A DNA stretch of 40,475 bases from a virus. Its lineage: Duplodnaviria > Heunggongvirae > Uroviricota > Caudoviricetes. Shown here piece after piece: positions 4 to 39,221 of the stretch (the first letter of the stretch is position 1; every line of letters starts with the position of its first letter). A program made the translations under genes and the position numbers. The notes under the pieces are model-generated. The model had not been told where the DNA came from. It made no database searches and worked only from the letters and a program-made list of their open reading frames with translations. The DNA is taken from IMG/VR virus record IMGVR_UViG_2660237933_000004; one strand, 5' to 3'.

Positions 4-501
4 ATGATGCCATTTGCTCGTTATTTCTGCATTTTCATAAACGTTGGTTTGGGAGAAGGTGCTCCAACTATTGGCGTTCCGTTCTTCTGGCCCTCCGCGG
101 CAATGCCAAATACTGTAATCGACAGCTGGTCCGGTATGGTGTTTTTGAAGTTCAACGGGGCGAAATTTTCTGCCTCTGATTACCCTGTGCTGGCGAAAGT
201 GTTTCCTTCGCTGGTATTACCTGAAGCCCGCGGTGATTTCATTCGTATCTGGGATGACGGGCGAGGTGCAGATGGTGGTCGCGAATTATTAAGCTGGCAG
301 GAAGCTACAAACTTTTCTCAGTTTGCCGGGAATATAGGCGGAGGTGCGGGACACGCAATTAGCTTTCATGATGGCATCGCCGGAAATCAGCCAGGATTTT
401 CACGATTTAATTTCACCAGTAACTCTGTGGGTGATGGTGTGAATTTTGTTGCTGTCAGACCGCGAAATATTGCATTTAACTTTCTGGTGAGGGCTAAATA
501 A
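4..501 (+). CDS. Alternative tail-fibre C-terminal variable domain (Sv'-like), silent orientation; 5' part is the crossover site
   Basis: ORF running out of the left crossover site; encodes GLGEGA at the site exactly as the expressed fibre does at the right site; followed by its own tail-fibre assembly gene. Confidence 0.5.
   Translation: MMPFARYFCIFINVGLGEGAPTIGVPFFWPSAAMPNTVIDSWSGMVFLKFNGAKFSASDYPVLAKVFPSLVLPEARGDFIRIWDDGRGADGGRELLSWQEATNFSQFAGNIGGGAGHAISFHDGIAGNQPGFSRFNFTSNSVGDGVNFVAVRPRNIAFNFLVRAK
32..57. repeat. DNA-invertase crossover site, left (hix/gix-like)
   Basis: TTTTCATAAACGTTGGTTTGGGAGAA has the AAAC-nn-GGTTT core of Hin/Gin/Cin/Pin sites; an inverted copy lies at 1778-1803 (21 of 26 identical, distal 12 bp identical). 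Confidence 0.55.
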
Positions 502-1094
502 TGAAACCTGTTTTTGATGAAAATGGGCTGGCTACAGTGCCGGGCGATATGCGTTGTTTTTATTATGATGCTGAAACATCTGAGTATACGGGCTGGTCTG
601 ATGAATATATTAATACTGGCGTAAGTATGCCCGCCTGTTCAACTGGTATTGACCCGGGCGAAAACATTCTGGGAAGAGTGGCAGTATTTACAGGTAAGGG
701 ATGGAGCCATGAGGAAGACCATCGCAATGAGACTGTTTACTCAATCGAAAATGGTGCAGCTGTTACAGTGGATTATATCGGTGCCATCAAAGACGGTTAT
801 GTCACGCTTTCACCGTTAACGCCATACGATAAATGGGATGGTGAGAAATGGGTGACAGACACTGAGGCACAACACAGTGCCGCAGTAGACGCGGCAGAAG
901 CACAGCGCCAGTCACTGATTGATGCAGCAATGGCTTCCATTAGTCTGATTCAGCTGAAATTACAGGCCGGACGGAAACTGACTCAGGCAGAAACAACCCG
1001 ACTTAACGCCGTGCTGGATTACATTGACGCGGTGACGGCAACAGATACCAGCACCGCGCCGGATGTCATCTGGCCTGAACTGCCGGAGGCGTAG
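501..1094 (+). CDS. Tail fibre assembly protein (Tfa', alternative orientation)
   Basis: C-terminal motif DTSTAPDVIWPELPE typical of Tfa chaperones; convergent with the second tfa gene as in Mu G / P1 C segments. Confidence 0.7.
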   Translation: MKPVFDENGLATVPGDMRCFYYDAETSEYTGWSDEYINTGVSMPACSTGIDPGENILGRVAVFTGKGWSHEEDHRNETVYSIENGAAVTVDYIGAIKDGYVTLSPLTPYDKWDGEKWVTDTEAQHSAAVDAAEAQRQSLIDAAMASISLIQLKLQAGRKLTQAETTRLNAVLDYIDAVTATDTSTAPDVIWPELPEA

Positions 1095-1494
1095 GCCATT
1101 CAATATCGGGTGCTGTTGACGTATCAACACGCATCAGCAGCACACGGTATTTCTTCCATTGGGTGAGAGTTGTAGCTTCTTCATCAGTTGCGATATCAGC
1201 ATCAACAGCATCCTGACGCCAGGATATTTCACTGTCAGCTTTTTCCCGTAATTGGGATTTTTTAACTTCAGCAATAGCTATTAATTCCTTTTTGGTCGGC
1301 TGAGGAATATCTATCATTGCTGGTTTTCCATTCAGTGTTCCAATCTGTTTTCCTGGTGGAATATCCATAAATAACTTTTTATGTTCTTCCTCACTGACTA
1401 TTACACCATCATCAGGCCACAGACCTGATGCCTCAAATTTTTCTTTCTCCGATATGGGGAAAAAGCCATTTGCTTTAGCGCTCCATACGTACAT
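1066..1494 (-). CDS. Tail fibre assembly protein (Tfa)
   Basis: 142 aa; C-terminal KKYRVLLMRVDTSTAPDIEWPTPP motif; directly downstream of the tail fibre gene. Confidence 0.75.
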   Translation of the reverse strand: MYVWSAKANGFFPISEKEKFEASGLWPDDGVIVSEEEHKKLFMDIPPGKQIGTLNGKPAMIDIPQPTKKELIAIAEVKKSQLREKADSEISWRQDAVDADIATDEEATTLTQWKKYRVLLMRVDTSTAPDIEWPTPPAVQAR

Positions 1495-1495
1495 A

Positions 1496-2080
1496 TCAAT
1501 ACCCCACCGCTATAATGTCCACATTAAATCCCCCGGGACCTGCCTGCCAGATGCTGGCCCCTGTTAATGATTTTGTTTGATGAACAACCGCCACATTTGC
1601 TGGCGATTGTGTTTCAGTTGTTACAGTACCGATATCATTCCAGTTAATTGAGATGGAATAGTTCGTTGTTGTAAACGACCGGGGGAAAGTTATGTGTCTT
1701 ACATTGGTGCCAACAGGAAATCCAAGATAAACACGCTGAATTATCATTCCTCCAGGTAACATAACCCAGTTAGCACCTTCTCCCAAACCAAGGTTTTCGA
1801 GAGCCGTTTTCACCGTGCCATCCGATTTGATATCACCAAACGGATTCTTGCGGCTTAACAGCAGCGCACGAAGCGCGGTAAGCAACTGGTCGTGCCGCTC
1901 CTTCTCCAGGCTGGCACCGGAGGCCTCCACCACGCTGCAGAGTTCTTCCTGCAACATGTCAAAGTAGTCATCATCCAGATCGGTGGCAGGCGTGCCTGTC
2001 TGGGGGTTACCACGGGTAAAACCGTTCTTACCCGCGCCGAACTTATCCTTCTGCGCGGTTTTCGTGTCTATACGATGCAT
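1496..2080 (-). CDS. Tail fibre protein (constant N-terminus plus currently expressed variable C-terminus)
   Basis: 194 aa; its N-terminal sequence looked like a conserved tail-fibre N-terminus from memory; right crossover site lies inside the gene at the GLGEGA codons. Confidence 0.7.
1778..1803. repeat. DNA-invertase crossover site, right (hix/gix-like)
   Basis: TTCTCCCAAACCAAGGTTTTCGAGAG; reverse complement CTCTCGAAAACCTTGGTTTGGGAGAA closely resembles hix (CAAAAACC TT GGTTTT) and matches the left site. Confidence 0.55.
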
Positions 2081-2083
2081 GGA

Positions 2084-2668
2084 TTACTCCGGATATTTAA
2101 AAATTACGTAGGTATGCGACGGGCAGAGTTTGTTAAGCACACATTCGACGACGGTGTCGCCCCAGACACGCAGCGCGGAATCACAGGGATCGCCACATGT
2201 CATCCAGGTGGTGTTGGTGGCGGCTGGCATGTTGACCTGCCAGTAATACCGCCATTCCGGCGCATTCACCGCGTCAGTACAGGCAGATGAGCAGGTGAAA
2301 GTGCTTTTATCGTATCGCGTGATGGTGGCATCTGGTCTGCCCAGGGCAGCAAGCTGTGCAAGGTAAAAATCCTCATTGATGCCGCCCGCCAGATTAACCT
2401 TCGCATCCAGCCGTTGCTGACGCTGGCGAAGGGTCTGCGTTCCCGCCGGAATACATTCATCCGGCAGGCCGCACAGACGCTCCCAGCGGTTTATCAGTTC
2501 AGTGGTGGTGCGCGGATCCAGCTCCCGCATCAGGGCATCCGCACGCTGATGAACGCGGGTTAATGACGGTGCCGCACCGGCAATCGCCGGATCGCTGGCT
2601 GACCACGCCGGACCGGGGGGCAACAGTGCCGACAACAGACGGATGTAATCATCGTTTGTCACGTCCAT
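2084..2668 (-). CDS. Tail/baseplate protein (Mu gp48-like)
   Basis: 194 aa ORF between baseplate J-like gene and tail fibre; position and size as in Mu-like tail modules. Confidence 0.45.
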
Positions 2669-3717
2669 GAAATCGTCCCCAGTACCGCCAGTTCATTTTT
2701 TGCAATGGAGATATTGTCTGCCGGTGCAAGCAACTGATGGCTGTATTCCCCGTTCGCACCGGAAATCGCTTCACTGATACGCGACACCTTCAGTTCTCCC
2801 TGCGGATAACCATCACGCAGCAGGAACGAACGCAACTCGGCGGTGATGGCAGCCCGTATTTCTGGTGTATCCGGCGTCACACGGATATGAAAATCCACCG
2901 TATGCGCCACCGGCCTGAACACATACAAATCAGAGCCTGCCACCGGGGCCAGTGGCTCGATATGCAGCCTTGCCGCCGTTTCCGTTGATTCTTCCGGAAT
3001 GGGATTAATCAGGTCGCTGCTGGCAATCATCACACCGACAGTCCCCGTTCCCATCCAGTGTCGGTATGTCCATGCGCGGGTAATGCCGGGAACTTCTTTA
3101 GCCCAGACGACATAGTCCCCGTCAGCCCCGCCCTGAGGCGTCCAGTAATACCGCTCAATGACGCGGGCGCGCCACGTTTCCAGCTCTTCAGTATCAAATC
3201 CACCTGTCAGTGTATCTGCCACGCCGGAAGACGGCAGACCATTCACCGGCGTGACCAGGATTAATGACGTACCGTCGTCAGCGTTACCGACCGCGCCTGC
3301 ACTTGAGCAGGCGATCGGCACGCGCAGGACACCACCGGAGCTGGTTGCATCGGCAGTTGCCGTGTACTGCACCAGGTCATCGCGCTGAATAACACTCCCG
3401 GCGGTCACCTTCAGGCCATCGCTGACACCTTCCCAGCGCATATACCCGCTGGCAGCCGTGGCCCCCTTGCGCGGACATCGTTTCATCGCAGCATGTCGCG
3501 CCAGCCAGGACTCATCGCACAAGTCAGGCAGCATGTTCATTGCCAGATAATCGATGTACCCGTAAACCGTATGCAGCGCCGCCGCATACACCTTTGCCCG
3601 CACGTCTTCATCCATGCGCCGGAGCGTGTCGCTGACGTCCAGCCAGGCGAATAAATCGTTACGGAGCATACTGATATTTTCTGCCAGCGTCGGGCGCTGA
3701 AATTCACTGTCCGCCAT
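2659..3717 (-). CDS. Baseplate J-like protein (Mu gp47-like)
   Basis: 352 aa; position in contractile-tail baseplate cluster; size typical of the baseplate J family. Confidence 0.6.
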
Positions 3718-4132
3718 GCGTTATCGCACTCCACAGATCATCAAAAGAAATCATTACCGGTCCGTCACGACGCCAGAGAGTGATACTGTTACCCAGTTCA
3801 TTAATCCCGGTGCGGCGGATATCCAGATCAATACGGGACACCACGCCATCATCAATCATCCATTGCAGGCATTCGCGGATATACCCCCTTACCGTCTGCA
3901 CCAGCTGATTGGTCAGTTTGCTGCGCTGAAGCAGCCACAGTCGGGAGCCGTAACGGTCATTCTGTACCGCAGGCCAGGTATCCCCCCACCATCCCATCGG
4001 GACGCCGGCGTTGTCATCAGGCTCCGCCCGCCGCCAGGTAAACAGGGAAATCACCACGGCGCGGGTCAGCGGATCCAGCGGTGCGCTGGCGCAGGTGCGT
4101 TTACCGTTCACCGTCAGCCACAGTTCCATCAT
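3704..4132 (-). CDS. Baseplate protein (GpW/gp25/Mu gp46-like)
   Basis: 142 aa ORF in baseplate cluster, overlapping its neighbours. Confidence 0.5.
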   Translation of the reverse strand: MMELWLTVNGKRTCASAPLDPLTRAVVISLFTWRRAEPDDNAGVPMGWWGDTWPAVQNDRYGSRLWLLQRSKLTNQLVQTVRGYIRECLQWMIDDGVVSRIDLDIRRTGINELGNSITLWRRDGPVMISFDDLWSAITHGGQ

Positions 4133-4677
4133 GCCTCCATCGCTTTATCAGGTTTGTCGGTGTTACTGCCCTGACCGTTCTCTCTGTGACGATGCCCGTT
4201 ATAGGCAAGCCGCATCGCTGACATGGTGGTGCCGCTGGAGTCGCACAGGTCTTTCACCTGTCCTGTCACTTCCAGGTCCATTTCAAAACGTGCCTTAGGC
4301 GCATTGCGAAACGTGATCGTTTTACCTGCACCGTCCACCACGATCCCCTCCCGGGTCAGCGTCACGGACTGCCCCTGATCGTCATAGACAGCCACCTCCC
4401 CAGTCTGCAGCCCTTTCAGGCGGTAGCGACGGTCCGACACCGTAACAACCACCGCATGAGAACGGTCTCCATCCGGAAACAACACCACCGCTTCCGCACC
4501 GCTGTTTGCCCTTGCGGTAAAACCGTAGGGTTCAAGATGTTCAACCCCGGCTTTGGGTTCACCGGCAATCAGGGACACATCCACGGTCTGACATTTCGTG
4601 GCGGCACTGATGCTTTTCACCACGGCACGCCCAATCAGGCCGAGGAGTTGTCGCTGCATGGCTTCAATCGTCCTCAT
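4129..4677 (-). CDS. Baseplate assembly/spike protein (gpV/Mu gp45-like)
   Basis: 182 aa; position between gpP-like and gpW-like genes. Confidence 0.5.
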   Translation of the reverse strand: MRTIEAMQRQLLGLIGRAVVKSISAATKCQTVDVSLIAGEPKAGVEHLEPYGFTARANSGAEAVVLFPDGDRSHAVVVTVSDRRYRLKGLQTGEVAVYDDQGQSVTLTREGIVVDGAGKTITFRNAPKARFEMDLEVTGQVKDLCDSSGTTMSAMRLAYNGHRHRENGQGSNTDKPDKAMEA

Positions 4678-5756
4678 CAGAACGGGTCCTCCTGTACTCT
4701 GGCTTTTTTCTTTTTCCGCGCGCCGGGGGCTTCGGGTTCAGGCAGATAAGCATCAGGCGGGCCGACACGGATTTCCGTCAGGGTGCCGTTCTGGTCCTGA
4801 GTAAACGTGACTTCCGAAACAAGCAGTTCGGTATTGTCGAAACCACAGACCGGATCAAAGACAATCACCCGCTGGTTGGGCTGCCACAGCGTACCGTTAC
4901 CCTGTCGCCAGCCCTGCACCACATAGGTGGTTTCATCCGTCCGCGCCGCCCGTTGTCGGGCTTCAAAGTCCGCACGGGCAATACAGCCTGCCCCCGTAGC
5001 CTGCCCTGTCTGCCTGATATACATCGGACGGTAACGGGCAATAAATGCGTCCTCTGTGCGGGCCCGCAGCGCGGTGGTGGTGGCCTCACCGAAATCATCG
5101 TCGTTTCCGGCACGCTGCCCCGCCACCTGGTAAACTGAAAACCGCTCCCGGATACTCTTCTCCGTATCACAGGAAAGGATGTTTTCCCCAAGTACCAGCG
5201 CGGTATGTGCCCGCGTTGAGCCAATACCACCAATCACCAGCCTGCCGTGCGGGTCGTCATAAGCCAGCGCCTGCTGCTGACCGAGTATTTTGTTGATCAC
5301 CTCGATCACCGTTTCACCGTGATCAGGCTGGACATCCGGAATAACACCCGACGGCGCATCGCTGTTCACCACCTCAATGCCGAAAGGCGCAGCAAGCGCC
5401 TGCGCAATCTGTACCAGCGATCGTCCGTTAAACTGTGTCGGTTCGGCTGCACAGTCAATCAGGTCAGCAGTCAGACTACGTCCGGCAATACCGGTGCTGA
5501 CCGAACGGGCATCGTAACGAACGGGGGTCGCCTCCACCCAGCCGGTGATCACCAGCTCATCACCAATCAGCACTTCCACTTTTGAACCATTTTTAATGCG
5601 CGGCTGAAGCGTGGTGATACCCTCATCTCCCGGCCACTGGCGGGTGATCTCCACGCTGAAATCCCGCGCCAGCCGTTCAATACCGGCACCGATGCGCACC
5701 GATGTCCAGCCATTCCACTCCCGGCCATTTACCCGTAGCGTGACGTTATCGTTCAT
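4677..5756 (-). CDS. Tail protein (Mu gpP / late control D-like)
   Basis: 359 aa; position downstream of the DNA circularization-like gene in a Mu-type tail module. Confidence 0.5.
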   Translation of the reverse strand: MNDNVTLRVNGREWNGWTSVRIGAGIERLARDFSVEITRQWPGDEGITTLQPRIKNGSKVEVLIGDELVITGWVEATPVRYDARSVSTGIAGRSLTADLIDCAAEPTQFNGRSLVQIAQALAAPFGIEVVNSDAPSGVIPDVQPDHGETVIEVINKILGQQQALAYDDPHGRLVIGGIGSTRAHTALVLGENILSCDTEKSIRERFSVYQVAGQRAGNDDDFGEATTTALRARTEDAFIARYRPMYIRQTGQATGAGCIARADFEARQRAARTDETTYVVQGWRQGNGTLWQPNQRVIVFDPVCGFDNTELLVSEVTFTQDQNGTLTEIRVGPPDAYLPEPEAPGARKKKKARVQEDPF

Positions 5757-7087
5757 TGCACTGGCACCTTCAGAGGGATCACCGGCACAAAGCCGGGATG
5801 CGTAATGGCATTACGCCGGATAATGTCCGCGTCACGCGCCGCGTTATCAAACCAGGTCGCCGCCAGCACCAGCGCGGGTAAGACCTCATCCGGCGTGCGC
5901 CGAATGATCCGTGCAGACTGTTCAAGGCGCGTGTTGATATCCGCATTCAGATCTGCTTTCACCCGGCGCAGTGCCAGAAACAGCGCATCACTGGTTGTAC
6001 GGGACAACTCCTTATCAATTGCCGTATTCAGTGTGTCGCGAATGTCAGTCAGCTCTTCCCACGTTGGCAGGTCAACCGTGTTTTTCACCGCCGGTGCATT
6101 GTTCAGTGCCGGATGCGTGACAGAAGGCCAGCCAGTGCTCTGCGCGGGTGTTGTTGCCTGCCCCACTGCGGAATTCTGCATCACCTCGGAAGTTGTTGGC
6201 GCAGGCAATCGGGTGACGGCATACGCCGCTTCGCTGATTGCGGTCGTACGAAGGGTGCTGGCAACCACGTTACGCTGCTGCGTCGCCGTGGCGGTGGTTT
6301 TACTGTCCGTTTTCCAGACGCCGCGCGGTTGCAGATCGCTGCCGAGGCTGACACCGGAAAGCGTTTTGATCATGGTGACCAGGTCGCTGGCGTTACCATA
6401 AAGGCGTTTCCCGGTACGCCACATTTTCTGCACCTGCTCAACGAAATTTTTGCCTGACGATGGCGGCGGCAGAAGTACCGAGATATCCCCCTGCAACAGC
6501 CTGGCGGCATCCGATACGGCAGAATCCACCACTTTCATCGCATCAGAAACATACCCCAGCATTATGCTGGCATTATCGATAACGTCGTTCTGCACGAAAT
6601 CCGCCACACCATCGATACTGAAACCGCTGAAGCTGTCACTGATGCAGTCATCCAGTGCAGAACAGGATGACATCAGCGTCTGCGCCGTCGCCGCACCTGA
6701 TGTGGGGTAAGAGAGTTCTCCTGCTTCGACAAACTTCAGGTCAAAGCGGACAATACGCCCTTCACTTTTCGATGTGCTGACCCGAACTTCCCCGTCAACA
6801 CAGACTTTCAGCTCACCATATGTCGGGTGGACAAGCGTGCCGGGACCGGGTTTATTCAGCGCTTCAATCAGGCGATCGCGCTGGTCAAAGCAGTCATCTC
6901 CCACCACATAAGCTGTGATGGACGGGCGGAAAGTGACTTTTCCCAGATCTTCGGTATAGGGCTTGTCGCGGTTCGGGTATTCATGTGTTTCCACACGGCG
7001 ACCGGTTCCCGCACTTTCTTCTTCAACCTTAAACGGCACACCTCGAAATGACGCATCCTGAAGCCTGTCTTTCCACGTCATATACAC
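5753..7087 (-). CDS. Tail protein (Mu gpN DNA circularization protein-like)
   Basis: 444 aa; N-terminal region looked Mu N-like from memory; downstream of tape measure. Confidence 0.5.
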   Translation of the reverse strand: MYMTWKDRLQDASFRGVPFKVEEESAGTGRRVETHEYPNRDKPYTEDLGKVTFRPSITAYVVGDDCFDQRDRLIEALNKPGPGTLVHPTYGELKVCVDGEVRVSTSKSEGRIVRFDLKFVEAGELSYPTSGAATAQTLMSSCSALDDCISDSFSGFSIDGVADFVQNDVIDNASIMLGYVSDAMKVVDSAVSDAARLLQGDISVLLPPPSSGKNFVEQVQKMWRTGKRLYGNASDLVTMIKTLSGVSLGSDLQPRGVWKTDSKTTATATQQRNVVASTLRTTAISEAAYAVTRLPAPTTSEVMQNSAVGQATTPAQSTGWPSVTHPALNNAPAVKNTVDLPTWEELTDIRDTLNTAIDKELSRTTSDALFLALRRVKADLNADINTRLEQSARIIRRTPDEVLPALVLAATWFDNAARDADIIRRNAITHPGFVPVIPLKVPVQ

Positions 7088-7090
7088 TCC

Positions 7091-7125
7091 GAAAATAAAA
7101 AAGCCACCTATTAGAAGGTGGCCTT
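7091..7125 (-). terminator. Intrinsic terminator after the moron gene
   Basis: Minus-strand hairpin (GCCACC / GGTGGC stem, 8-nt loop) followed by TTTTTTATTTT, 20 bp after the stop of the 7143-7673 gene. Confidence 0.5.
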
Positions 7126-7142
7126 GTAATGAATTTTATTAA

Positions 7143-7673
7143 TTAGCGAGTCAGAAACAACGAATCTTTATACTTTTGCTGTTGTTCATTTAAATACTTA
7201 GCTGTTTCATCGCTGGCAAATGGAAATATTACCGTATTTTTAGGCATGGTAATTTCTTTTTTGTCCAGCGTCAGAGTAAACATAGGAACATACTGAGCAG
7301 AGTAACGCACCGCAGAAACGAGCTCTAGTTTAGACTCTTCAATAACACTTAAATTATCCAGGCTAACTTTCTCTTCATCTTTTTTCTTTGACGCATTTAA
7401 AGTTTTTATTACTTTATTTAATTTCTCCTGAAAATCCTCCTTAAAGTTTTCAGGATTGCCGTCGACAACAAGAATCTGTTCACCCTGATTATCTGGAAAA
7501 ATAATCTTTGCACTTATCAATTTATTTTCTTTATAAACATCACCAAGTTTTATGGCTCCTCCAGATAACTGAATAATATGTTCATCTTTAAAGGAGATGT
7601 TGCCAGAGATTATGAGAGATGAAAAAATAGCCGCTGCTCCAAGAATTACACTTGCTGTGATATAGCCTTTCAT
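7143..7673 (-). CDS. Hypothetical membrane-anchored moron protein
   Basis: 176 aa; N-terminal hydrophobic helix (VILGAAAIFSSLIIS) then Lys/Glu-rich soluble domain; markedly AT-rich versus flanking tail genes; own promoter-like sequence and terminator. Confidence 0.6.
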   Translation of the reverse strand: MKGYITASVILGAAAIFSSLIISGNISFKDEHIIQLSGGAIKLGDVYKENKLISAKIIFPDNQGEQILVVDGNPENFKEDFQEKLNKVIKTLNASKKKDEEKVSLDNLSVIEESKLELVSAVRYSAQYVPMFTLTLDKKEITMPKNTVIFPFASDETAKYLNEQQQKYKDSLFLTR

Positions 7674-7764
7674 TTTTCGCCTATTAACATTTTTCTAAAT
7701 GTGCATTAATTCTATCACTCTATTTATGACTTACAACCAGCAATACATGTGAGGGGAATCCTGG

Positions 7765-9597
7765 CTACCAAAATCGGGTATAGCCAACATCGTGATTTAT
7801 ATCAATGCCACTGGAGCGTGTTTCCGTAACCCGCATACCTGGTGGCATATTTATAAATGATACCTTGATCTCACCATCAACTTTTGGCGCGGTAGCTTTA
7901 TTAATCATGAAGGGATTCGGGCCTGTGGCATCGGAGGCGTTGTTTGCCTGAGCCGGATCCACCGCCGGATAAGGAGTGTATCCCCGTGCCGGTATTCCCG
8001 TCCCATAAGCATCATAAGCACCCGCGCCCCACTGCGCAGAGTTAATGGCATCGACCGTGTCACCGGAACTGTCGGTAAACCACTCAATAATTGGCTTCAG
8101 CTTGTCCCACATATCCTGAAACCACTTAACAACCGGCCCCCAGTTATTGATCACCATCCCCAGCGGCGACCAGGCAAAAACTTTCTTAAGGAGTTCCCGG
8201 CCAGCCTCAAAATAAGGACCAATGGTTTCCCAGAGCTTCTTGAAATAAGGTCCGACAACATCCCAGTTAGTGATAATTAATCCCGCAGCCAGGGCTATCG
8301 CCGTCGCAATCATGCCAATCGGCGTCATCGACATGATCCTGCTGACAATGCTGATGGCACTGCCCACGCCCATCAATCCCAGTTTCAGAATCGCAAGACC
8401 GGCAGCAAGCCCGACGACGCCGCGAATAACCCGGGGATTTTCATCCGCAAACTTCGTGAATTTTTCCCCTAACTCCCCCAGCCATTGCGTGATATTTTTG
8501 GCGTCACCAGAAAATGCGCCGCCAATAGCCGCAAGGCCGTTAGTTGCGGTCCCCGTCATTGCCTCCCACAGGTTGGACAGCGTACCAAGCTGGGCCTGAA
8601 CACGTTTATTCAGGCTGGCCTGTTTATTCATCTTCTGCTGGATCTGATCGTAGCCATCCTTTCCTTTATCGATTAGTGCATTGACCACCTGAAGGGTTTC
8701 GGCATCATCACCAAATATTGCCTTAAGTACACCTGTTCGCTTAACGTCGGTCAGTTTTCGCAGCTTTGCCAGTTGCCTGAACATGTTATCAAGACCGCCA
8801 AAACTCCCTTTGCCGTCAGTAAAATCGAGCTTTACTCCGAGTTTCTGGCGGGCCATGATTTTATTGACGTCCCTGATTTTCTTAACGCTTAATCCGGACT
8901 GGATAACTTTTCGCAGGGCATTACCTGCCGACTCCCCGTTCATCCCCATCTGATCCATCATGACGCTGATGGGGGCAAGGCTCTGTGCAGCCTGAAGACC
9001 GTCCTTGTTCACCATCTTCAGAACAGAACTGGTTTTAGTGAAAAAGGACAACATGTTGGTATCGTCAACGCCCAGATAAAACGCCTTCTGGATAGTGTCG
9101 AACAGCCCCATCATGTCTTCTGACGCCGTTCCGGTAGCATCCTGCATCTTTGCGGCAAACTCGGCAGCCGCTTCCGGTGTTTTTTTCAGTTGTACCGCAA
9201 GATAAGCTGTCGCTTTACCCACACCGCCCAGAATGTTTTCTGCCGGGATCCCCTGACGCACCAGCATCTGCATCATGTTCTGGAAATCAGCCGTTGTACC
9301 GGGTAGCTGGTTACCCAGACCAATAGCCAGTTTATTGATGTCCTGAAAGCGCTTTCCGACCTCACCGTTCGCATCCATCATGGCAACTTTCAGCCCGGTG
9401 GCGGCATTTTCCTGATCGGCATAAGATTTCAGGGAAAGCGTCAGACCCGCAGCCAGTCCGCCACCAAGCGCCAGCCCACCCTGTGACGCTTCTTCAGCCT
9501 GGCGTTTAAATCCCCGGATTTTCTTTTGCATTTTCGACAGCGCGGGAGAAAGCCTGTCGACACCGGTGATCAACGCCTTAAGCTCAAATTCAGCCAT
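7765..9597 (-). CDS. Tail tape measure protein
   Basis: 610 aa with Gly/Ala-rich and hydrophobic segments; follows the frameshifted chaperone pair. Confidence 0.8.
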   Translation of the reverse strand: MAEFELKALITGVDRLSPALSKMQKKIRGFKRQAEEASQGGLALGGGLAAGLTLSLKSYADQENAATGLKVAMMDANGEVGKRFQDINKLAIGLGNQLPGTTADFQNMMQMLVRQGIPAENILGGVGKATAYLAVQLKKTPEAAAEFAAKMQDATGTASEDMMGLFDTIQKAFYLGVDDTNMLSFFTKTSSVLKMVNKDGLQAAQSLAPISVMMDQMGMNGESAGNALRKVIQSGLSVKKIRDVNKIMARQKLGVKLDFTDGKGSFGGLDNMFRQLAKLRKLTDVKRTGVLKAIFGDDAETLQVVNALIDKGKDGYDQIQQKMNKQASLNKRVQAQLGTLSNLWEAMTGTATNGLAAIGGAFSGDAKNITQWLGELGEKFTKFADENPRVIRGVVGLAAGLAILKLGLMGVGSAISIVSRIMSMTPIGMIATAIALAAGLIITNWDVVGPYFKKLWETIGPYFEAGRELLKKVFAWSPLGMVINNWGPVVKWFQDMWDKLKPIIEWFTDSSGDTVDAINSAQWGAGAYDAYGTGIPARGYTPYPAVDPAQANNASDATGPNPFMINKATAPKVDGEIKVSFINMPPGMRVTETRSSGIDINHDVGYTRFW

Positions 9598-15263: not shown

Positions 15264-15950
15264 TTAGAAGTTCAGATTTTTCAGTGCATTCAGTGCAGAG
15301 CTCACATCCTCAGCGTCGCGCAGGGACAGTGCGCTATAGCCCCCGGCCATGAATGCTTTGGCCTGGGTACGGGAGAGTCCGACATCACGCAGGACTCTTT
15401 CGATTTTTTTCTGTTCGGGGATTTCCCCGCGGGCCAGCGCGTTCTTGACGTCGCTGATCCGTGCCTCGTCGTTAGACGGGAACGTCACCAGACTGACTTC
15501 CCAGAGGTCGATTTCTTTTAGCAGAAAGGCTTCTTTCGTCCGGTCGTATTCCCAGTCTTTCAGGACGTACCCAATAGAAAGGCCGGTTAACGAACCGGCC
15601 TTCATGTGTGCATGTGCGCGTTTTGCCAGGGGATCATCATCAATGAGCAACCGCCCCCTGACGTAAAGCCCGACATCGTCTTCCTTCATTTCGGTGTAAA
15701 CACCGATGGGCTCATCCATGCGGTGCTGCCAGAGCAGCGCAGGTAACGCTTTTCTGTCACTCCACGCCCGCAGGGAGGCGGCAAATGCCCCGGACATCAC
15801 CACATCATCGTGGCTGTCCTTTACACCAAAGACGGAGCCATACCCTTCAAACTCACCGGAGTCACTGACAGACTTCAGACTCAGCGGTACATCAAGACGT
15901 TGTTTCGTCTGCATTGGCGTTATCCTTCTGCTTACCGGCTTTACTGCCAT
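15264..15950 (-). CDS. Prohead protease (HK97 family); true start may be the internal Met at 15914
   Basis: 228 aa between portal and major capsid genes. Confidence 0.7.
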   Translation of the reverse strand: MAVKPVSRRITPMQTKQRLDVPLSLKSVSDSGEFEGYGSVFGVKDSHDDVVMSGAFAASLRAWSDRKALPALLWQHRMDEPIGVYTEMKEDDVGLYVRGRLLIDDDPLAKRAHAHMKAGSLTGLSIGYVLKDWEYDRTKEAFLLKEIDLWEVSLVTFPSNDEARISDVKNALARGEIPEQKKIERVLRDVGLSRTQAKAFMAGGYSALSLRDAEDVSSALNALKNLNF

Positions 15951-17133
15951 CGGAGGGTTTCGTGGTCATGTTCATCGGTGTGAGATAGACATCACCACCG
16001 GGACGCGGATTCATATCTTCCAGATCGCGGCAGTCATTGGGAGAGTAAATTCCCCAGTTGATCCCGGTGGCGTAGGCTTCAAAACGGGACTTCATATCCC
16101 CGCGCAGTAACGCCCCGGCGTTAAATTTGGCGTAATAAACGCCCTGCTTACTTTTTCGTACCAGTCCGGTGTTGATCCGCTGTTCGATGCGGGTCAGATA
16201 CGGCACCAGTGAATAGTTGATAAATCCCAGCCCCAGCTCTTCGATATTGTTGAAGGTGGCGCGATCGGTGTTCTGCACCATGTGCAACGGCACCCGGAAC
16301 AGACGACAGATTTCTTCAAGCTGAAACTTGCGGGTTTCCAGGAACTGGCTGTCCTCGGCGTTCAGCGCCATCGACTTCCAGTCCAGCCCCATCTCAAGGA
16401 TCATCGGGCGGTGAGCATTACCAAGCCCGGTGTGACGCTCCTCAAAATCTTTCTTCAGGCGCTCGTAAGCCTGATCCGACAGCGTCTGTTCTGTACGCAA
16501 CACACCCGACGTCACCGCGCCATTGCTGAACAGTCTGGCCCCGTGCTCTTCGGTCGCAGCTGCCAGCGATATTGCCTCACGGGCATAGGCGATGGGATTC
16601 AGTCCCACCAGACCGTCCAGCGTCAGCGTGCGCACATGCCAGATATCCTCCTGGCTCAGTACATCCGTGGAGCCATCCGGGAATGTGACCTGATAGACCG
16701 GCTCCCAGCTACTGTTAAGCTTCGGTACCACACAGCCGGGATCGACGGGCAGCAGTTCAGCCACTTCGCCAAATGCTTTCACTTTGTAGGCGTAAAAGTT
16801 TCCCCGCAGGCACAGACAGGTGACCACCAGCTCCCAGAACTCCTGCGGCGTCATATAGCCATTGGGATGCGTGGAGATCAGCTTATGCAGACGTTCGCCA
16901 GTGGCTCTCTGCTTCAGGCTGCCGTTCAGGTGATACAGGTTGCAGGGCAACATCCCGACCGACTCCGCCAGCACCCTGACACAGGAAAAAACCGCCGTCA
17001 GTCGCATGGCCCGCTGGCTGCTGATCTGCTTTCCGGTATAGGTGTCGTAGGACAACCCGATGGCATCCGCCAGCTCTGCTGGCGTGGTCACCGGTGCGTC
17101 ACTTTTTCGTTGAAATAATCCCGAAAAGAACAC
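15892..17133 (-). CDS. Portal protein (HK97 family)
   Basis: 413 aa; downstream of large terminase. Confidence 0.85.
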   Translation of the reverse strand: MFFSGLFQRKSDAPVTTPAELADAIGLSYDTYTGKQISSQRAMRLTAVFSCVRVLAESVGMLPCNLYHLNGSLKQRATGERLHKLISTHPNGYMTPQEFWELVVTCLCLRGNFYAYKVKAFGEVAELLPVDPGCVVPKLNSSWEPVYQVTFPDGSTDVLSQEDIWHVRTLTLDGLVGLNPIAYAREAISLAAATEEHGARLFSNGAVTSGVLRTEQTLSDQAYERLKKDFEERHTGLGNAHRPMILEMGLDWKSMALNAEDSQFLETRKFQLEEICRLFRVPLHMVQNTDRATFNNIEELGLGFINYSLVPYLTRIEQRINTGLVRKSKQGVYYAKFNAGALLRGDMKSRFEAYATGINWGIYSPNDCRDLEDMNPRPGGDVYLTPMNMTTKPSDGSKAGKQKDNANADETTS

Positions 17134-17326: not shown

Positions 17327-19060
17327 TTAAAGCGAGCGGATCCCGTAGGACTCAATGTGGTCAGACAGCGTGTCTTCTTTCTCGTACAGCATGGCTCTGC
17401 CAACCGCCATAATCAGCGCAACTGCACCATCGATTTTGTTTTCCGCCTGCTCTTTGACGGGTTTCACCACATCATCGTTACCCGGAATGGTTTTGCCGAC
17501 CACGTTGCCGATACACCAGGTCATGATGGGATTGCCGTCATGATGAAAGCGCCCCGATTCAATTGCCGCTTCCAGCTCTTTCATCGGGTCGGACATGTTG
17601 GTGTAGTTCTGAATGATAGTGATGGGGTTCAGGTCTTCATCAGCAAGGTCATGTGACAACCCGGTCGCCCCGAAGGGGTCGATGGGTGACTCACTGACCG
17701 GGCTGATTTTGTTCGCCGCTTTGGCCTCCTCGAGGATGTAGCGATAATCCACCTCCGCACCATCGGTAACGGTCAGAACGCCCATTTCCACCCATTTCTG
17801 AAAGCGTTCGGCTGTCCGTCGATCTTCATTTTTCTCGACGCTGTACACCGTGTCATACGGTACCCAGAAACGCGGGGCCACACTGTAGTAATGCGTTTTA
17901 CCGTCAATCTCGCGGGTATAAAGTCGCGCCATGCTGTTCATATCCAGCTTACGCGCCAGGTCAAAGGCCAGAATGCACGGCTGCCCCTCGAACTGCTCAA
18001 GAGTCAGTGATTTATCCTCGCATCTCTGCCAGCTCACCAGGTTGAAATACGCCGAACGCGCCGACACCCAGATATTGAGGTGTTTTGTTTTAAAGACGTT
18101 TGCCAGACGGGCGTTATTTTTCGCACGTTGCTGCTGGCTTAACAAAAACTCGCGATAAACCGACACACCGATATTCGGGTTAGCTTTTTCAAGTACCTGC
18201 GGGTCGGTCCAGTCGTCGCCTTCGTCAACGGTATAGATGATCCCGAACAGTTCATCGTTGGGCACCGAGCCGTTGAGCATCTCGATGACTTCCCGCCGTT
18301 TGTCGTAGCACGGCCCCTCAATGTTGTACCCGGCGGTGGTAATGGCCCACATCAGTGGCTGGCGTCGCGCCCCCATCCCGGTAAGCATCGTGGTGTAAAG
18401 CGCATCTGTGGCGTGCTCGTGATATTCATCCACCACCGCACAGTGGGGTGATGAACCATCACCGGGGTTACCGATCAGCGGTTCAAACCGCGCACCATCC
18501 TCCGGACGGTTCATGTTTGAGGCGTTAACCTCAATCCCGAACGCTTCCGTCAGCATGGGTGTGCGTTTACACATCAGTCGTGCCGGACGAAAGACTTCCC
18601 ATGCCTGTTTCTCCGTCGTGGCACCGGAATACACTTCCGCGCCGAACTCGTTATCACAGGCAAAACAATACAGGGCGACACCGGCAGAGATTGCCGATTT
18701 GCCGTTCTTACGGGGGATTTCGGTATACACCTCACGGAAGCGGCGCAGCCGGGAGCCTTTATTGACCCAGCCAAACGCGCAGCAGATCACAAAGAGCTGC
18801 CACGGCTCCAGCGTGATGGGCATCCTCTTAAATGCCCACTCACCCTTGGTGTGCGGCAACAGCTGAATAAATTTCGCGGCCCGTTCAGCCAGGTCCTTGT
18901 CGAAGCGGTAACGAAACGACTTACTTTTTTCCTCCATCAGGTCATCAAGATGGCGCTGGCAGGCCTGAATCACAAACTGGCAGGCCACAATCTTTCCGTG
19001 CACGACATCACGGGCATACTGATTGGCAGCATTTACGTTGGGGTAAGATTTCCGGCTCAT
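17327..19060 (-). CDS. Terminase large subunit
   Basis: 577 aa; overlaps the small subunit gene by 4 nt; size and position typical of HK97-type terminase. Confidence 0.9.
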
Positions 19061-19560
19061 GATTCGATGATTTTCAGAAACGGGTTAGTGGCTTTCTTCT
19101 GCCCCGCCAGGCCAATCAGACGCTGGCGGCTGCTGGGGTCGAGTCCGAGCATTGCCCCCGTACTGCTCATCTCGGACTCCTGTTCTTTTTTGGCGGTCAG
19201 CTCCGGATTTTTGACCATACCGCCCATTGCACCGGTGATGGTGTTGCCCTGTCTGGCAATATTTTTCACGGCACGTCGCCAGAACTCGTAGGCCACGCAC
19301 CACCGCTCAAGCACCGCGAGGTCAGTCACGCACAGCAGGCCCTGACCGCAGAGTTCTTTAGTTGTCAGTTGCCACATGATCGTGGCGAGAGGGAGATCTT
19401 CTTCAGCGAACCACTCCGGTGGCTCAACACCTTTGATGGGCGTAAAAACAGGTTCATCTTTATTCAGGGCTCGCTTGCCGGGGTTTCCGGCCAGCGCCTT
19501 GCGCGCCGTTGGCTTGGGGCGACGCCCGGAACGCCCCGCCGTTCCAGCCATATGCGGCAC
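19057..19560 (-). CDS. Terminase small subunit
   Basis: 167 aa, basic N-terminus; immediately upstream of large terminase and downstream of HNH gene. Confidence 0.65.
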
Positions 19561-19594
19561 TCCTGGTTAAATTTCATTTTTCGCGGGTATAAAA

Positions 19595-19660
19595 AAACGA
19601 TGGGGCGGGCAGTCCGGAAGACGTCAGGCCGCAGGGATTTGACCCGCCCCTCCCCTCAGG
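19595..19660. other. Candidate cos site region
   Basis: GC-rich inverted repeat GGGGCGGG ... CCCGCCCC between the HNH endonuclease and small terminase genes; resembles the GGGCGG start of lambda cosN. Confidence 0.3.
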
Positions 19661-19676
19661 CAGTTGAGAATCATTA

Positions 19677-20027
19677 TCACTTCAACCGTTCACGGGCCGT
19701 CTTCGCCTTATGACACGGCCAGCACAGACTCTGCAGATTACAGTCGGCATCAGTGCCGCCATGCGCTTTAGGGATGATGTGGTCAACAGTTTTCGCCTCA
19801 CGCACCACACCAGCACGCAGACATAGCTGACACAGGACTTTGTCACGCTTCAGGACACGCACGCGGATAACATCCCACTTCGAACCATAACCGCGCTGAT
19901 GACGAGATTGTCCTGGCTTGTATTGCTTCCAGCCTTCGCTTTTATGGCTTTCACAATAGCCTGACGGGTCAGTAGTGGTATTGCGGCAACCGCGAACGCG
20001 GCAGGCTTTTGGTGTTCGTGGCGGCAT
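19677..20027 (-). CDS. HNH endonuclease (terminase-associated)
   Basis: 116 aa; Cys-rich N-terminus and HNH-type motif TVDHIIPKAHGG...N; located just upstream of terminase as in HK97-like phages. Confidence 0.8.
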   Translation of the reverse strand: MPPRTPKACRVRGCRNTTTDPSGYCESHKSEGWKQYKPGQSRHQRGYGSKWDVIRVRVLKRDKVLCQLCLRAGVVREAKTVDHIIPKAHGGTDADCNLQSLCWPCHKAKTARERLK

Positions 20028-20079
20028 ATCTACTCCAATGAAAAAGCCACCGGTTGATAACCGATGGCTTTGATTGTTC

Positions 20080-20697: not shown

Positions 20698-20877
20698 TCC
20701 CCGCTTTATCCAAATTGCATTGCCAGAATGCCGACAACAGACTGACATTCAAATCCTGACTACCTCCAATAGTCTGACCGTACACCTATATAGTTTTAAA
20801 TTTCATCAATCCATTTAACTATCGTTTAATTGTTGTCACATAGGATTCTGCCGTTTTTAACAATGCAGGATAATAAG

Positions 20878-21171
20878 ATGAAAAAAATGTTGTTTTCTGC
20901 CGCTCTGGCAATGCTTATTACAGGATGTGCTCAACAGACGTTTACTGTTGGAAACAAACCGACAGCAGTAACACCAAAGGAAACCATCACCCATCATTTC
21001 TTCGTTTCGGGAATTGGACAGGAGAAAACTGTTGATGCAGCCAAAATTTGTGGCGGCGCAGAAAATGTTGTTAAAACAGAAACCCAGCAAACATTCGTAA
21101 ATGGATTGCTCGGTTTTATTACTTTAGGCATTTATACTCCGCTGGAAGCGCGTGTGTATTGCTCACAATAA
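20878..21171 (+). CDS. bor: Bor lipoprotein (serum resistance, lysogenic conversion)
   Basis: Near-identical to lambda Bor from memory, including lipobox LITGC; opposite strand to the lysis genes as in lambda. Confidence 0.85.
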   Translation: MKKMLFSAALAMLITGCAQQTFTVGNKPTAVTPKETITHHFFVSGIGQEKTVDAAKICGGAENVVKTETQQTFVNGLLGFITLGIYTPLEARVYCSQ

Positions 21172-22657: not shown

Positions 22658-23461
22658 ATGACAGAAAAAGATAACATTGGTAAGTTAATTTGGCATATTG
22701 CTTGCGATGAATCTGGCATTGATGGACAACGTTTCTACGGCTTTGGCAGTCTGTGGATGAAGTACCAACGCCGTGGGGATTTCTGTCAACTAATCAGAGA
22801 ACTACGCGGAAAACATGGTTTTTTTGAAGAAATAAAATGGCAAAAAGCCCATTCAAAAAGATACTCTGAATTTTATCTTGAGCTGATCGACTTATTCTTT
22901 AGAGTTCCTTGGCTAGCTTTTCATTGTATCGTGGTTGAAAAATCAATAGTAAATAAGGCATTTCATAATGGAGATTATGACCTGGCAAGGAGAAAGCACT
23001 TCACAAATCTCATTACCACAAAAATTAGCTCTGTAATTTCTGCACACCCTGAAAGAGACAGTTACTTCAGGATTGAAGTTGATCCTATCGCATCTCGTTA
23101 TAAAAAGGCTGATGAAGAACTAAATGTTATTGCCAATAACATATTGAATAGAAAATTTGGTCGTAAAGGGATAATCAGCAGTGTAGTGACAAAAGACTCT
23201 AAAGCATCTGAAAACATTCAGCTAGCCGATTTTTTCTTAGGTGCGGTTATGTGCGCATATCAAGGAAAAGCTTCATCTGAAGCCAAAATAAGAGTATCAA
23301 ACTATGTTGCTTCATATTTAGGCTGGGATCACTTGCAATATGATACATGGCACACTGAGAGAAAATTTAATATCTGGTATTTTTATGATAAAACTCGAGG
23401 GCCACGAGATATAGAAACTCAAAATGTTAGCTTGAAGTATCCACTTCCCAAAAAGAAATAG
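22658..23461 (+). CDS. DUF3800-like protein (function unknown), opposite-strand moron between Q and holin
   Basis: 267 aa; N-terminal DESG and C-terminal QLAD motifs as I recall for DUF3800; AT-rich; AT-rich upstream region. Confidence 0.6.
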   Translation: MTEKDNIGKLIWHIACDESGIDGQRFYGFGSLWMKYQRRGDFCQLIRELRGKHGFFEEIKWQKAHSKRYSEFYLELIDLFFRVPWLAFHCIVVEKSIVNKAFHNGDYDLARRKHFTNLITTKISSVISAHPERDSYFRIEVDPIASRYKKADEELNVIANNILNRKFGRKGIISSVVTKDSKASENIQLADFFLGAVMCAYQGKASSEAKIRVSNYVASYLGWDHLQYDTWHTERKFNIWYFYDKTRGPRDIETQNVSLKYPLPKKK

Positions 23462-37376: not shown

Positions 37377-37655
37377 ATGTTCAGAATCATTTTTCCTAAC
37401 ACCTGGTACGTCGACCACCACGGCACTCCCTGCAAAATCCTGCGTTCTACCCACAACAAAGTTCACTACATCCGAAAAGGCAGAACATGTATCGCCAGCA
37501 TGTTCCGCTTTAATCATGACTTTGAACCTGTGAATAAAGCTGATGCAGATCGGATAGCAGAAGAGATCGAAACGGCAGAACACATTAAGAAGTTACGTGA
37601 CATGCGTTCAAAAAGCAGAGGTAACCATGGAATCATACAGCCTCACACTCGATGA
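37377..37655 (+). CDS. Hypothetical protein
   Basis: 92 aa ORF upstream of xis; 3' end overlaps xis start. Confidence 0.3.
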   Translation: MFRIIFPNTWYVDHHGTPCKILRSTHNKVHYIRKGRTCIASMFRFNHDFEPVNKADADRIAEEIETAEHIKKLRDMRSKSRGNHGIIQPHTR

Positions 37656-37977
37656 GGCCTGTCAGTTTCTCAAGATATCCAGACCTACCGCTACCAACTG
37701 GATACGAACAGGCCGCCTACAGGCAACACGCAAAGACCCCACTAAACTAAAATCTCCTTACCTCACAACACGACAAGCCTGCATTGCGGCGCTTCAGTCT
37801 CCGCTGCATACTGTCCAGGTGAGCGCGGGTGATGGCATAACAGAGGAAAGAAAATGTCACTCTTCCGCAGAGGTGAAATATGGTACGCCAGTTTCACATT
37901 GCCGAACGGTAAAAGATTTAAACAGTCTCTTGGAACAAAGGACAAAAGGCAGGCGACAGAGCTCCATGACAAGCTAA
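37627..37977 (+). CDS. xis: Excisionase (P22-type)
   Basis: 116 aa from [31 protein letters not shown] (AlpA/Xis-type HTH); immediately upstream of and overlapping int. Confidence 0.7.
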
Positions 37978-39017
37978 AGGCTGAAGCATGGCGGGTCAGC
38001 AAACTTGGTGAAATACCTGATATGACGTTCGAGGAGGCGTGTATCAGGTGGCTCGAAGAGAAAGCACATAAAAAATCACTGGACGATGACAAAAGCCGGA
38101 TCGGATTCTGGCTTCAACATTTCGCAGGGATGCAACTAAGAGACATCACTGAATCAAAAATTTATTCAGCAATGCAGAAAATGACGAACCGGCGTCATGA
38201 GGAAAACTGGAAACTCAGGGCAGAAGCATGCAGAAAAAAAGGGAAACCTGTTCCAGAATACACGCCAAAACCAGCGTCCGTTGCAACGAAGGCTACGCAT
38301 CTTTCATTTATAAAGGCCCTGCTAAGAGCCGCAGAGCGTGAATGGAAAATGCTGGATAAGGCACCAATTATTAAAGTGCCTCAACCAAAGAATAAACGGA
38401 TCCGCTGGCTGGAGCCCCATGAAGCACAAAGGCTGATTGATGAATGTCCGGAGCCATTAAAGTCTGTTGTTGAATTTGCACTGGCAACAGGCTTAAGACG
38501 CTCGAACATCATCAACCTTGAATGGCAACAAATAGATATGCAGCGCCGGGTGGCATGGATAAACCCGGAAGAGAGTAAATCAAACCGCGCAATTGGCGTT
38601 GCGCTGAATGATACTGCATGTCGCGTATTGAAAAAACAAATCGGGAATCATCACCGTTGGGTATTTGTGTACAAGGAAAGCTGTACCAAACCAGACGGAA
38701 CGAAAGCGCCAACAGTAAGGAAGATGCGGTATGACGCAAACACAGCCTGGAAAGCGGCGCTGAGACGGGCTGGTATTGATGATTTCAGATTTCACGACTT
38801 GAGACACACCTGGGCAAGTTGGCTGGTTCAAGCCGGAGTCCCGTTGTCAGTGTTACAGGAAATGGGAGGCTGGGAGTCTATCGAAATGGTTCGTCGATAT
38901 GCTCACCTTGCACCTAATCACCTTACCGAACACGCACGGCAAATAGACTCGATCCTGAACCCATCGGTCCCAAATTTGTCCCAGTCAAAAAATAAGGAAG
39001 GTACTAATGATGTGTAA
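37854..39017 (+). CDS. int: Tyrosine integrase (P22/SfV-type, thrW-specific)
   Basis: 387 aa; N-terminus [31 protein letters not shown] and catalytic region [10 protein letters not shown]...VRRYAHL; ends 14 bp from the tRNA-Thr 3' end. Confidence 0.9.
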
Positions 39018-39031
39018 CTTATTGATTTAAA

Positions 39032-39107
39032 TGGTGCCGATAATAGGAGTCGAACCTACGACCTTCGCATTACGAATGCGCTGCTCTACCAACTGAGCTA
39101 TATCGGC
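39032..39107 (-). tRNA. thrW: tRNA-Thr (anticodon CGU), thrW-type
   Basis: Minus-strand 76 nt GCCGATATAGCTCAGTTGGTAGAGCAGCGCATTCGTAATGCGAAGGTCGTAGGTTCGACTCCTATTATCGGCACCA; cloverleaf with CGT anticodon; 3' CCA. Confidence 0.9.
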
Positions 39108-39221
39108 CCTGAAAGGACATGTTCACGAACGTGAATCACGGTGGACAAGGTTAAAACTAACCGGGCGATGCGTCAATGGCCTTGTGAATCAAATGGCTAC
39201 TTTTGCATCACCCGGTTTTAT

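Follow-up and report, generated by a model that had tools for sequence, protein, structure and literature searches.

What is the short stretch of DNA that separates the gene of an HNH endonuclease from that of the small terminase (terS) in this prophage, and which of its parts would matter for DNA packaging? An earlier note had proposed a cos site here and had read a GC-rich inverted repeat within the gap as the mark of a cosN of the GGGCGG type found in lambdoid phages. In the window, by which we mean the whole 40,475-nt stretch of viral DNA that was analysed, the gap is very probably where an SfV-like cos phage of the HK97 type, integrated at thrW, has its cos site. The inverted repeat is real but incidental, a by-product of one G-rich and one C-rich element lying on the same strand.

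Genomic context of the HNH-terS gap

The window holds a complete SfV-like prophage, from int through the tail fibres, with the late genes on the minus strand. At positions 1-20764 the window shares 97% identity with a prophage that E. coli 90-9281 carries at thrW, in the half with the tail, head and terminase genes, and the integrase, tRNA-Thr and proA are located at 37627-39550. The late operon reads Q, holin, lysozyme, Rz, HNH, cos and terS on the minus strand, the same arrangement as in lambda and HK97. The genes flanking the gap are those named in the earlier note, both on the minus strand: the HNH endonuclease gene (19677..20027; PF01844, E = 5e-15), a homologue of HK97 gp74, and the gene of a 164 aa small terminase of the P27 family (19057..19551; PF05119). 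They are accompanied by the gene of an HK97-type large terminase (TerL; 17327..19060, minus strand; PF03354 and PF20441) and, downstream of it, by the portal gene (15892-17133, minus strand). The window itself shows the order HNH, cos, terS, terL, portal, and the 97%-identical prophage encodes a prohead protease and a major capsid protein of the HK97 family; the gene order is that of the HK97 type, which runs from HNH and cos through the terminase and portal genes to those of the prohead protease and the major capsid protein.

The longest open reading frame of terS would start with a GTG at 19560. In SfV, SfI and the RefSeq homologues the gene starts with the ATG at 19551, which is preceded at a distance of 8 nt by a Shine-Dalgarno sequence, AGGAG (19560..19564, minus strand), and this ATG is most likely the start codon. 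The non-coding gap described earlier thus exists, but it extends from 19552 to 19676 and is 125 nt long rather than 116.

Some features of the surrounding late operon deserve mention in their own right. A strong 13-bp hairpin with a U-run behind it (dG = -20.5 kcal/mol, z = -4.7) is located at 20043-20071 (minus strand), where it directly precedes the ribosome-binding site of HNH; it was not flagged by a simple terminator scan and looks like an intrinsic terminator within the Q-antiterminated operon. Two genes on the plus strand (20830-21171 and 22658-23461) run against the late operon. One of them encodes a lipoprotein of the lambda Bor family (PF06291, E = 1e-30) and the other a DUF3800 protein, located between Q and holin; the same slot is occupied by a 3.1-kb metallophosphoesterase gene in E. 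coli 90-9281, and both opposed genes are probably morons.

Position and sequence of the cohesive end

The position of the cut can be taken from phage SfI. With outward-facing primers in HNH and terS, Sun et al. obtained run-off reads of SfI virion DNA that lacked, at both ends, precisely 5'-TGCCCGCCCC-3' with respect to the prophage, from which they deduced a cos mode of packaging for SfI (PMC3636060). In the window, TGCCCGCCCC has a single exact match, at 19611-19602 on the minus strand. The proposed location of cos between HNH and TerS, as in HK97, was therefore right, and the identity with SfI identifies, at the level of sequence, the cohesive end (cosN core, 19602..19611, minus strand) with a predicted 10-nt 3' overhang. 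It is followed on the minus strand by ATCGTTTTTTT, and the SfI record ends with TGCCCGCCCC and restarts with GTCGTTTTTTT. Directly 5' of the cohesive end lies the triplet GAC (19612..19614, minus strand), which is also present in SfI, phiE125 and HK97; GAC was found in 45 of 65 relatives and NAC in 59 of them. The mapped cuts of SfI, phiE125 and HK97 fall in the same alignment columns, and for the window we predict a top-strand nick between 19602 and 19601 and a bottom-strand nick between 19611 and 19612.

The length and position of the ends in the window follow from SfI, and their 3' polarity is stated for phiE125/phi644-2 and HK97. For the lineage of SfI and the window we infer the same polarity, as ten nucleotides absent from both run-off reads are what recessed 5' ends would leave.

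The SfV record (U82619.2) is linearised at the position corresponding to 19619/19618 in the window (...GACGTCT / TCCGGACTGCCCGCCCC...), 7 nt upstream of the end mapped in SfI. The SfV cos was only "postulated" by Sun et al. (PMC3636060), and the deposited "ends" of SfV are probably not physical termini. Another arrangement was noticed in three Phytopseudomonas/Pseudomonas prophages, in which GACCGCCCGAAC lies ~10 nt further from the TerS box (see below) than the GAC-led cohesive end of the others and is followed by an extra GACGGGGGGAGCC segment, ~40 nt upstream of that box. This looks like an insertion or a rearrangement beside the cut site.

Conserved blocks across the relatives

Relatives were gathered by TerS similarity, from a phage database by tblastn and from genomes with one per species, and HK97, phiE125 and lambda were fetched directly. 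This replaced an initial scan of viral contigs, which had returned only relatives that were at least 99% identical and of no use for conservation. The resulting comparison set consists of 65 sequences, mutually <85% identical over the aligned 140-nt cos region and with a TerS 48-99% identical to that of the window, from the Enterobacterales, Pseudomonas, Burkholderia, Comamonas, Gilliamella and Moraxella. The alignment is ungapped and anchored on CCGCGAAA, such that the conservation of the anchor columns is in part built in; the columns on either side are free of this constraint.

Throughout the 65 relatives we observed one layout, fixed and free of gaps, consisting of the G-box, a variable spacer, the GAC with the 10-nt end, a T-tract and ACCCGCGAAAAATGAAATTT, with three conserved blocks and variable spacers between them. 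Far upstream, at 19657-19686, the mean information is 0.05 bits. It rises to 1.09 bits in the conserved upstream subsite that we named the G-box (GGGGAGGGGCGGGTCAAATC, 19636..19655, minus strand) and amounts to 0.45 bits in the spacer between the G-box and the cut site (19615..19635, minus strand), of which the length is kept and the sequence is not. The GAC (19614-19612) reaches 1.26 bits and the cohesive end (19611-19602) 0.93 bits, both on the minus strand. Inside the left genome end, at +5 to +11, follows a T7 tract (19591..19597, minus strand) that lies outside the anchor columns and has a mean information of 1.63 bits (alignment columns 91-96, corresponding to 19596-19591; the T7 run itself spans 19597-19591). 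The block next to it, ACCCGCGAAAAATGAAATTTAAC at +14 to +36 (19566..19588, minus strand), which we call the TerS box and which is probably a cosB-like site for TerS, has 1.53 bits (alignment columns 97-120, corresponding to 19590-19567), and the positions behind it, with the Shine-Dalgarno sequence and the start of terS (19566-19547, minus strand), 0.27 bits. The motifs of the G-box, the cohesive end and the TerS box each occur only once in the window.

A full-text search with the motif strings returned no paper describing these cos blocks; the matches were unrelated primers or att sites. A different junction was seen in Vibrio phage H2 (KY658673, 335-1174), with a P27-family TerS that is 49% identical. 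Here, HNH and terS are only 6 nt apart and none of the cos blocks is present at the junction, and therefore cos should lie elsewhere in that lineage.

The TerS box and the terminase proteins

A core of the CCGCGAAA type was found in 85 of 87 TerS-upstream regions, from many genera. Its wider form in the window, ACCCGCGAAAAATGAAATTT (19588-19567), is probably the binding site of TerS, because the TerS site of HK97 has the same position and the same make-up of a CCCG and an A/T tract. The HK97 site extends from +15 to +29 (CTAACCCGATTTTTT), combines a CCCG core with an A/T tract, and depends on the C:G pair at position 21 and on the A-tract, which are essential (PMC11331095). The numbering of that site agrees with the HK97 GenBank record.

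One could instead take the ACCCGCGAAAAATGAAATTT block for an element controlling the transcription or translation of terS, as in the window it occupies the 2-24 nt before the Shine-Dalgarno sequence. We consider this unlikely, since the distance of the block to the cut is fixed and that to the terS start varies from ~20 to >100 nt (for example in Xenorhabdus, Photorhabdus and Caballeronia), and since an experimentally defined TerS site has the same position and make-up in HK97.

The proteins that would act on the gap have their counterparts by sequence in HK97, with the exception of TerS. TerL is a homologue of HK97 gp2 (E = 1e-29, with 26% identity in 522 aa), with 6Z6D as its single match among PDB sequences, and the HNH protein is one of HK97 gp74 (45% identity over 42 aa, E = 2e-10), a protein that stimulates cos cleavage in vitro (PMC9410871). 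Between the P27 TerS and HK97 gp1 we found no sequence similarity by BLASTP, Pfam, hhalign or a profile search of PDB sequences. The P27 TerS family conserves a basic N-terminal arm (GRxGRKPKP) and a motif at the start of the C-terminal helix, which may correspond to DNA-contacting elements of HK97 TerS to judge by their resemblance.

The G-box and an upstream Fur-like palindrome

We propose that the G-box could be a binding or termination signal for TerL/HNH, comparable to the cosQ of lambda, an upstream element that is needed for termination. A comparison with the HK97 cos region was among the checks that the earlier note had suggested. The G-box of HK97 is GGGCAGGGGGGGGGATCAAATC, and in both HK97 and the window the G-box plus TCAAATC ends exactly 34 nt before the top-strand cut; the alignment of the two cos regions has z = 4.2, with the G-box and a GAC followed by a C-rich 10-mer common to both.

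Upstream of the G-box, a 15-bp palindrome, TGATAATGATTCTCA (19665..19679, minus strand), matches the Fur-type 7-1-7 box in 13 of 14 positions. It stretches from the HNH stop codon to 9 nt short of the G-box. Fur-like boxes with at least 10 of 14 matches were present in 32 of 67 cos regions, compared with 13 of 325 control windows, and lie 3-10 nt before the G-box. In HK97, such a box is located 3 nt upstream of the G-box, and lambda (NC_001416, 48452-48466) has a perfect TGATAATCATTATCA 6 nt before cosQ; members from Burkholderia, Comamonas and Xenorhabdus are without the palindrome. A literature search found no paper tying Fur to cosQ, cosN or cosB.

A model for the use of the site

Taken together, the blocks suggest the following course of events. 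The ring of the P27 TerS would most likely bind ACCCGCGAAAAATGAAATTT (19588-19567) on the concatemer, 14-36 bp inside the future left end, the bound element being the ACCCGCG plus A-tract box. The HK97-type TerL, aided by the adjacent HNH protein, would then make two nicks 10 bp apart, at 19602/19601 on the minus strand and at 19611/19612 on the plus strand, giving 10-nt 3' overhangs, 5'-TGCCCGCCCC-3' and its complement. Packaging would proceed from terS towards the tail genes up to the next cos, where the motor should meet the G-box (19655-19636) first, ~25-45 bp before the cut. There, the G-box probably helps to position or trigger the cleavage complex, perhaps in a cosQ-like role or as a docking site for TerL/HNH.

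This model also takes it that the prophage can probably be induced. The site might also be a cos by descent only, within a defective or cryptic prophage, and never be cut in the present host; many E. coli prophages of the SfV-like kind are degraded, and the related prophage of strain 90-9281 carries an IS3 insertion and several pseudogenes. This appears quite improbable for the window, which spans int to tail fibres and in which the HNH, TerS, TerL and portal reading frames are intact and 97-100% identical to those of plaque-forming phages, with all cos blocks intact as well.

The inverted repeat and the RNA-structure reading

What, then, of the inverted repeat from which the assignment had started? 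Its arms on the plus strand, GGGGCGGG at 19602-19609 and CCCGCCCC at 19643-19650, are indeed complementary at 8 of 8 positions, with 33 nt between them. The first arm lies inside the cohesive end and the second inside the G-box, a separate conserved element. Perfect inverted repeats of at least 8 nt arose in 463 and 511 of 5000 dinucleotide-preserving shuffles of the gap (9-10%) and 60 of the 696 116-nt tiles of the window contained one. Nor is the repeat conserved or co-varying. In the 65 relatives, the longest complementarity between the two regions averaged 4.98 within a sequence and 5.03 between unrelated sequences, the eight pairs were formed in 53% of cells at the true register and in 55-57% with one arm slid by 1-4 nt, and 8/8 pairing was confined to the window's own group. 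Furthermore, its centre (~19626) lies roughly 20 bp upstream of the mapped cuts. The repeat was accordingly rejected as a functional element on the basis of the shuffles, the own-versus-cross complementarity and the register slide, and it does not serve as a signature of cosN.

The repeat might alternatively form, together with the T-run, an RNA hairpin that lies between the transcripts of HNH and terS, be it as an intrinsic terminator or with a regulatory role. In its favour, TTTTTTT comes 4 nt after GGGGCGGG...CCCGCCCC on the sense strand, and the minimum-free-energy fold pairs both arms. Yet a terminator scan found nothing, the region is no more stably folded than its shuffles (z = -0.30; 67 of 200 did equally well), the loop of 33 nt and the 4 nt between stem and T-run speak against it, Rfam returned no matching family, and the arms lack the co-variation described above (4.98 versus 5.03; 53% versus 55-57%). 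A terminator or RNA structure was rejected on the terminator scan, the fold z-score, Rfam and the pairing slide, and we regard it as very improbable.

A lambda-type cosN, namely a rotationally symmetric GC-rich site with 5' overhangs in which the repeat forms two terminase half-sites, would fit the GGGCGG at 19603-19608 on the plus strand, identical to the first bases of the lambda cohesive end, and the lambdoid layout of lysis and regulatory genes, but it is scarcely credible given a non-significant local alignment to lambda cos, a G-rich strand that is antisense to terS in the window and sense to nu1 in lambda, a repeat at chance level and unconserved with its centre off the cuts, a P27 TerS and HK97-type TerL in place of Nu1/gpA, and 10-nt 3' ends in the mapped relatives.

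A possible modular cos design and its relevance

The type of site described here, that of SfI/SfV and HK97-like phages, is already known, and it resides in a very common E. coli prophage; a 241-nt core was found in 1121 of 5426 complete E. coli genomes (~20%). Its organization leads us to a broader and more tentative idea, possible rather than probable in our view, that phages with an HK97-type TerL and an HNH protein share one modular cos design whatever the family of their TerS. Its parts might be an optional Fur-like palindrome, a G-rich box at a fixed distance (25-45 bp) upstream of the cut, a GAC plus 10-nt 3' end, and, 15-35 bp downstream, a box particular to the TerS family in question; TerL/HNH would then read the G-box as a hitherto undescribed subsite similar to cosQ, and the palindrome would be a site for a host factor. 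The blocks shared with HK97 (G-box and cut site) track the shared TerL and HNH, and the divergent block tracks the divergent TerS, which supports such a division of labour without proving it.

For annotation, the position of cos and the predicted virion ends are hereby fixed for a module present in about one-fifth of the complete E. coli genomes, which may be of use for the prediction of phage termini, for the mobilisation of cos plasmids or satellites and for the correct linearisation of SfV-like genomes. The gap-free block architecture, extending from E. coli to Burkholderia and shared with HK97, also offers concrete DNA targets for the P27 TerS and for the TerL/HNH complex.

Comparison with known cos systems

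The ends of lambda are 12-nt 5' overhangs. Lambda cos follows the same general logic as the site in the window, with a nicking site that has an element for termination upstream of it and a TerS site downstream, located between lysis and head genes, and lambda too has a palindrome, TGATAATCATTATCA, and a GGGTC (within cosQ) upstream of the cut. In contrast, lambda has a Nu1/gpA terminase and no HNH protein, and its 120-bp cosB contains R sites and an IHF site. Of the lambda overhang, GGGCGGCGACCT, only the GGGCGG hexamer is common to the window, where it lies on the opposite strand relative to terS. The likeness pointed out earlier is therefore superficial; in the same orientation, the two cos regions gave no significant local alignment (z = 0.58), and homology of the site was rejected on this ground. 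The polarity and length of the overhang and the TerS family differ as well. No alignment was obtained between the window and lambda cosB. The site thus has neither the Nu1/gpA terminase with cosB R and IHF sites nor the 12-nt 5' overhang of lambda with its partial two-fold symmetry around the nicks, and it shares the logic of lambda cos but stands outside the lambda family.

Two local resemblances to lambda were noticed besides. The GGGTC of lambda cosQ resembles the end of the G-box in the window, and at +13 to +42 lambda has CGCGGGTTTT and ATGAAAATTTTCC (the I2 segment), to be compared with CCCGCGAAAAA and ATGAAATTTAACC, which lie about as far from the cut in the window (19588-19565); these likenesses may be a coincidence, as the overall alignment is not significant.

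The Burkholderia phages phiE125, phi1026b and phi644-2 come closer. They possess a P27 TerS (52% identity), the ungapped block layout with a 10-base 3' extension in the same columns, and a nearly identical CCCGCGAAA box. For phiE125, 10-base 3' extensions of the sequence 5'-CGCCCGCTTC-3' are reported (PMC2920897); in its record, GGGAC CGCCCGCTTC forms the end and GTCGAATTTTCACGCCCGCGAAATT / GTCGAATTTTCACGCCCGCGAAATTAAAAATTCAGGAG the beginning, and terS lies at position 46. These phages differ from the window in the overhang (CGCCCGCTTC), in the lack of a Fur-like palindrome and in a spacer with its own small hairpin.

In HK97, cos likewise follows the HNH gene and directly precedes terS, in an intergenic region of 368 nt compared with 125 nt in the window. 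HK97 has a 10-nt 3' overhang (PMC11331095; PMC9410871), and its cohesive end, CGCCGCCAAA versus TGCCCGCCCC in the window, is again a C-rich 10-mer behind GAC; ~15-30 bp in from the left end, HK97 too has a box made up of CCCG and an A/T tract. The two have homologous TerL and HNH proteins; the sequence family of TerS differs, as does the sequence of the TerS box, which is offset by 4 nt.

The closest relatives belong to the SfV group. When the stretch of HNH, gap and TerS (19057-20027, 971 nt) was compared, three E. coli phages matched at 95-97% over the full length, and SfV, SfI, SfII and SfIV were 97-99% identical over the gap and terS part (56-64% of the query), located at the starts of their records, with 98-99.5% for terS and the downstream part of the gap. 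The four phages differ from the window by several bases in the upstream part of the gap and in their early region and morons, the host of the window being E. coli, and the first base after the cut is A in the window and SfV and G in SfI. They share with it the thrW integration site, the HNH, TerS, TerL and portal genes, with a TerS amino-acid identity of 99-100% to the SfV/SfI-type phages, and an identical G-box and cohesive end, TGCCCGCCCC. Judged by this cohesive end and by the near-identical packaging genes (TerS and TerL), the site in the window is a cos of the SfV/SfI type.
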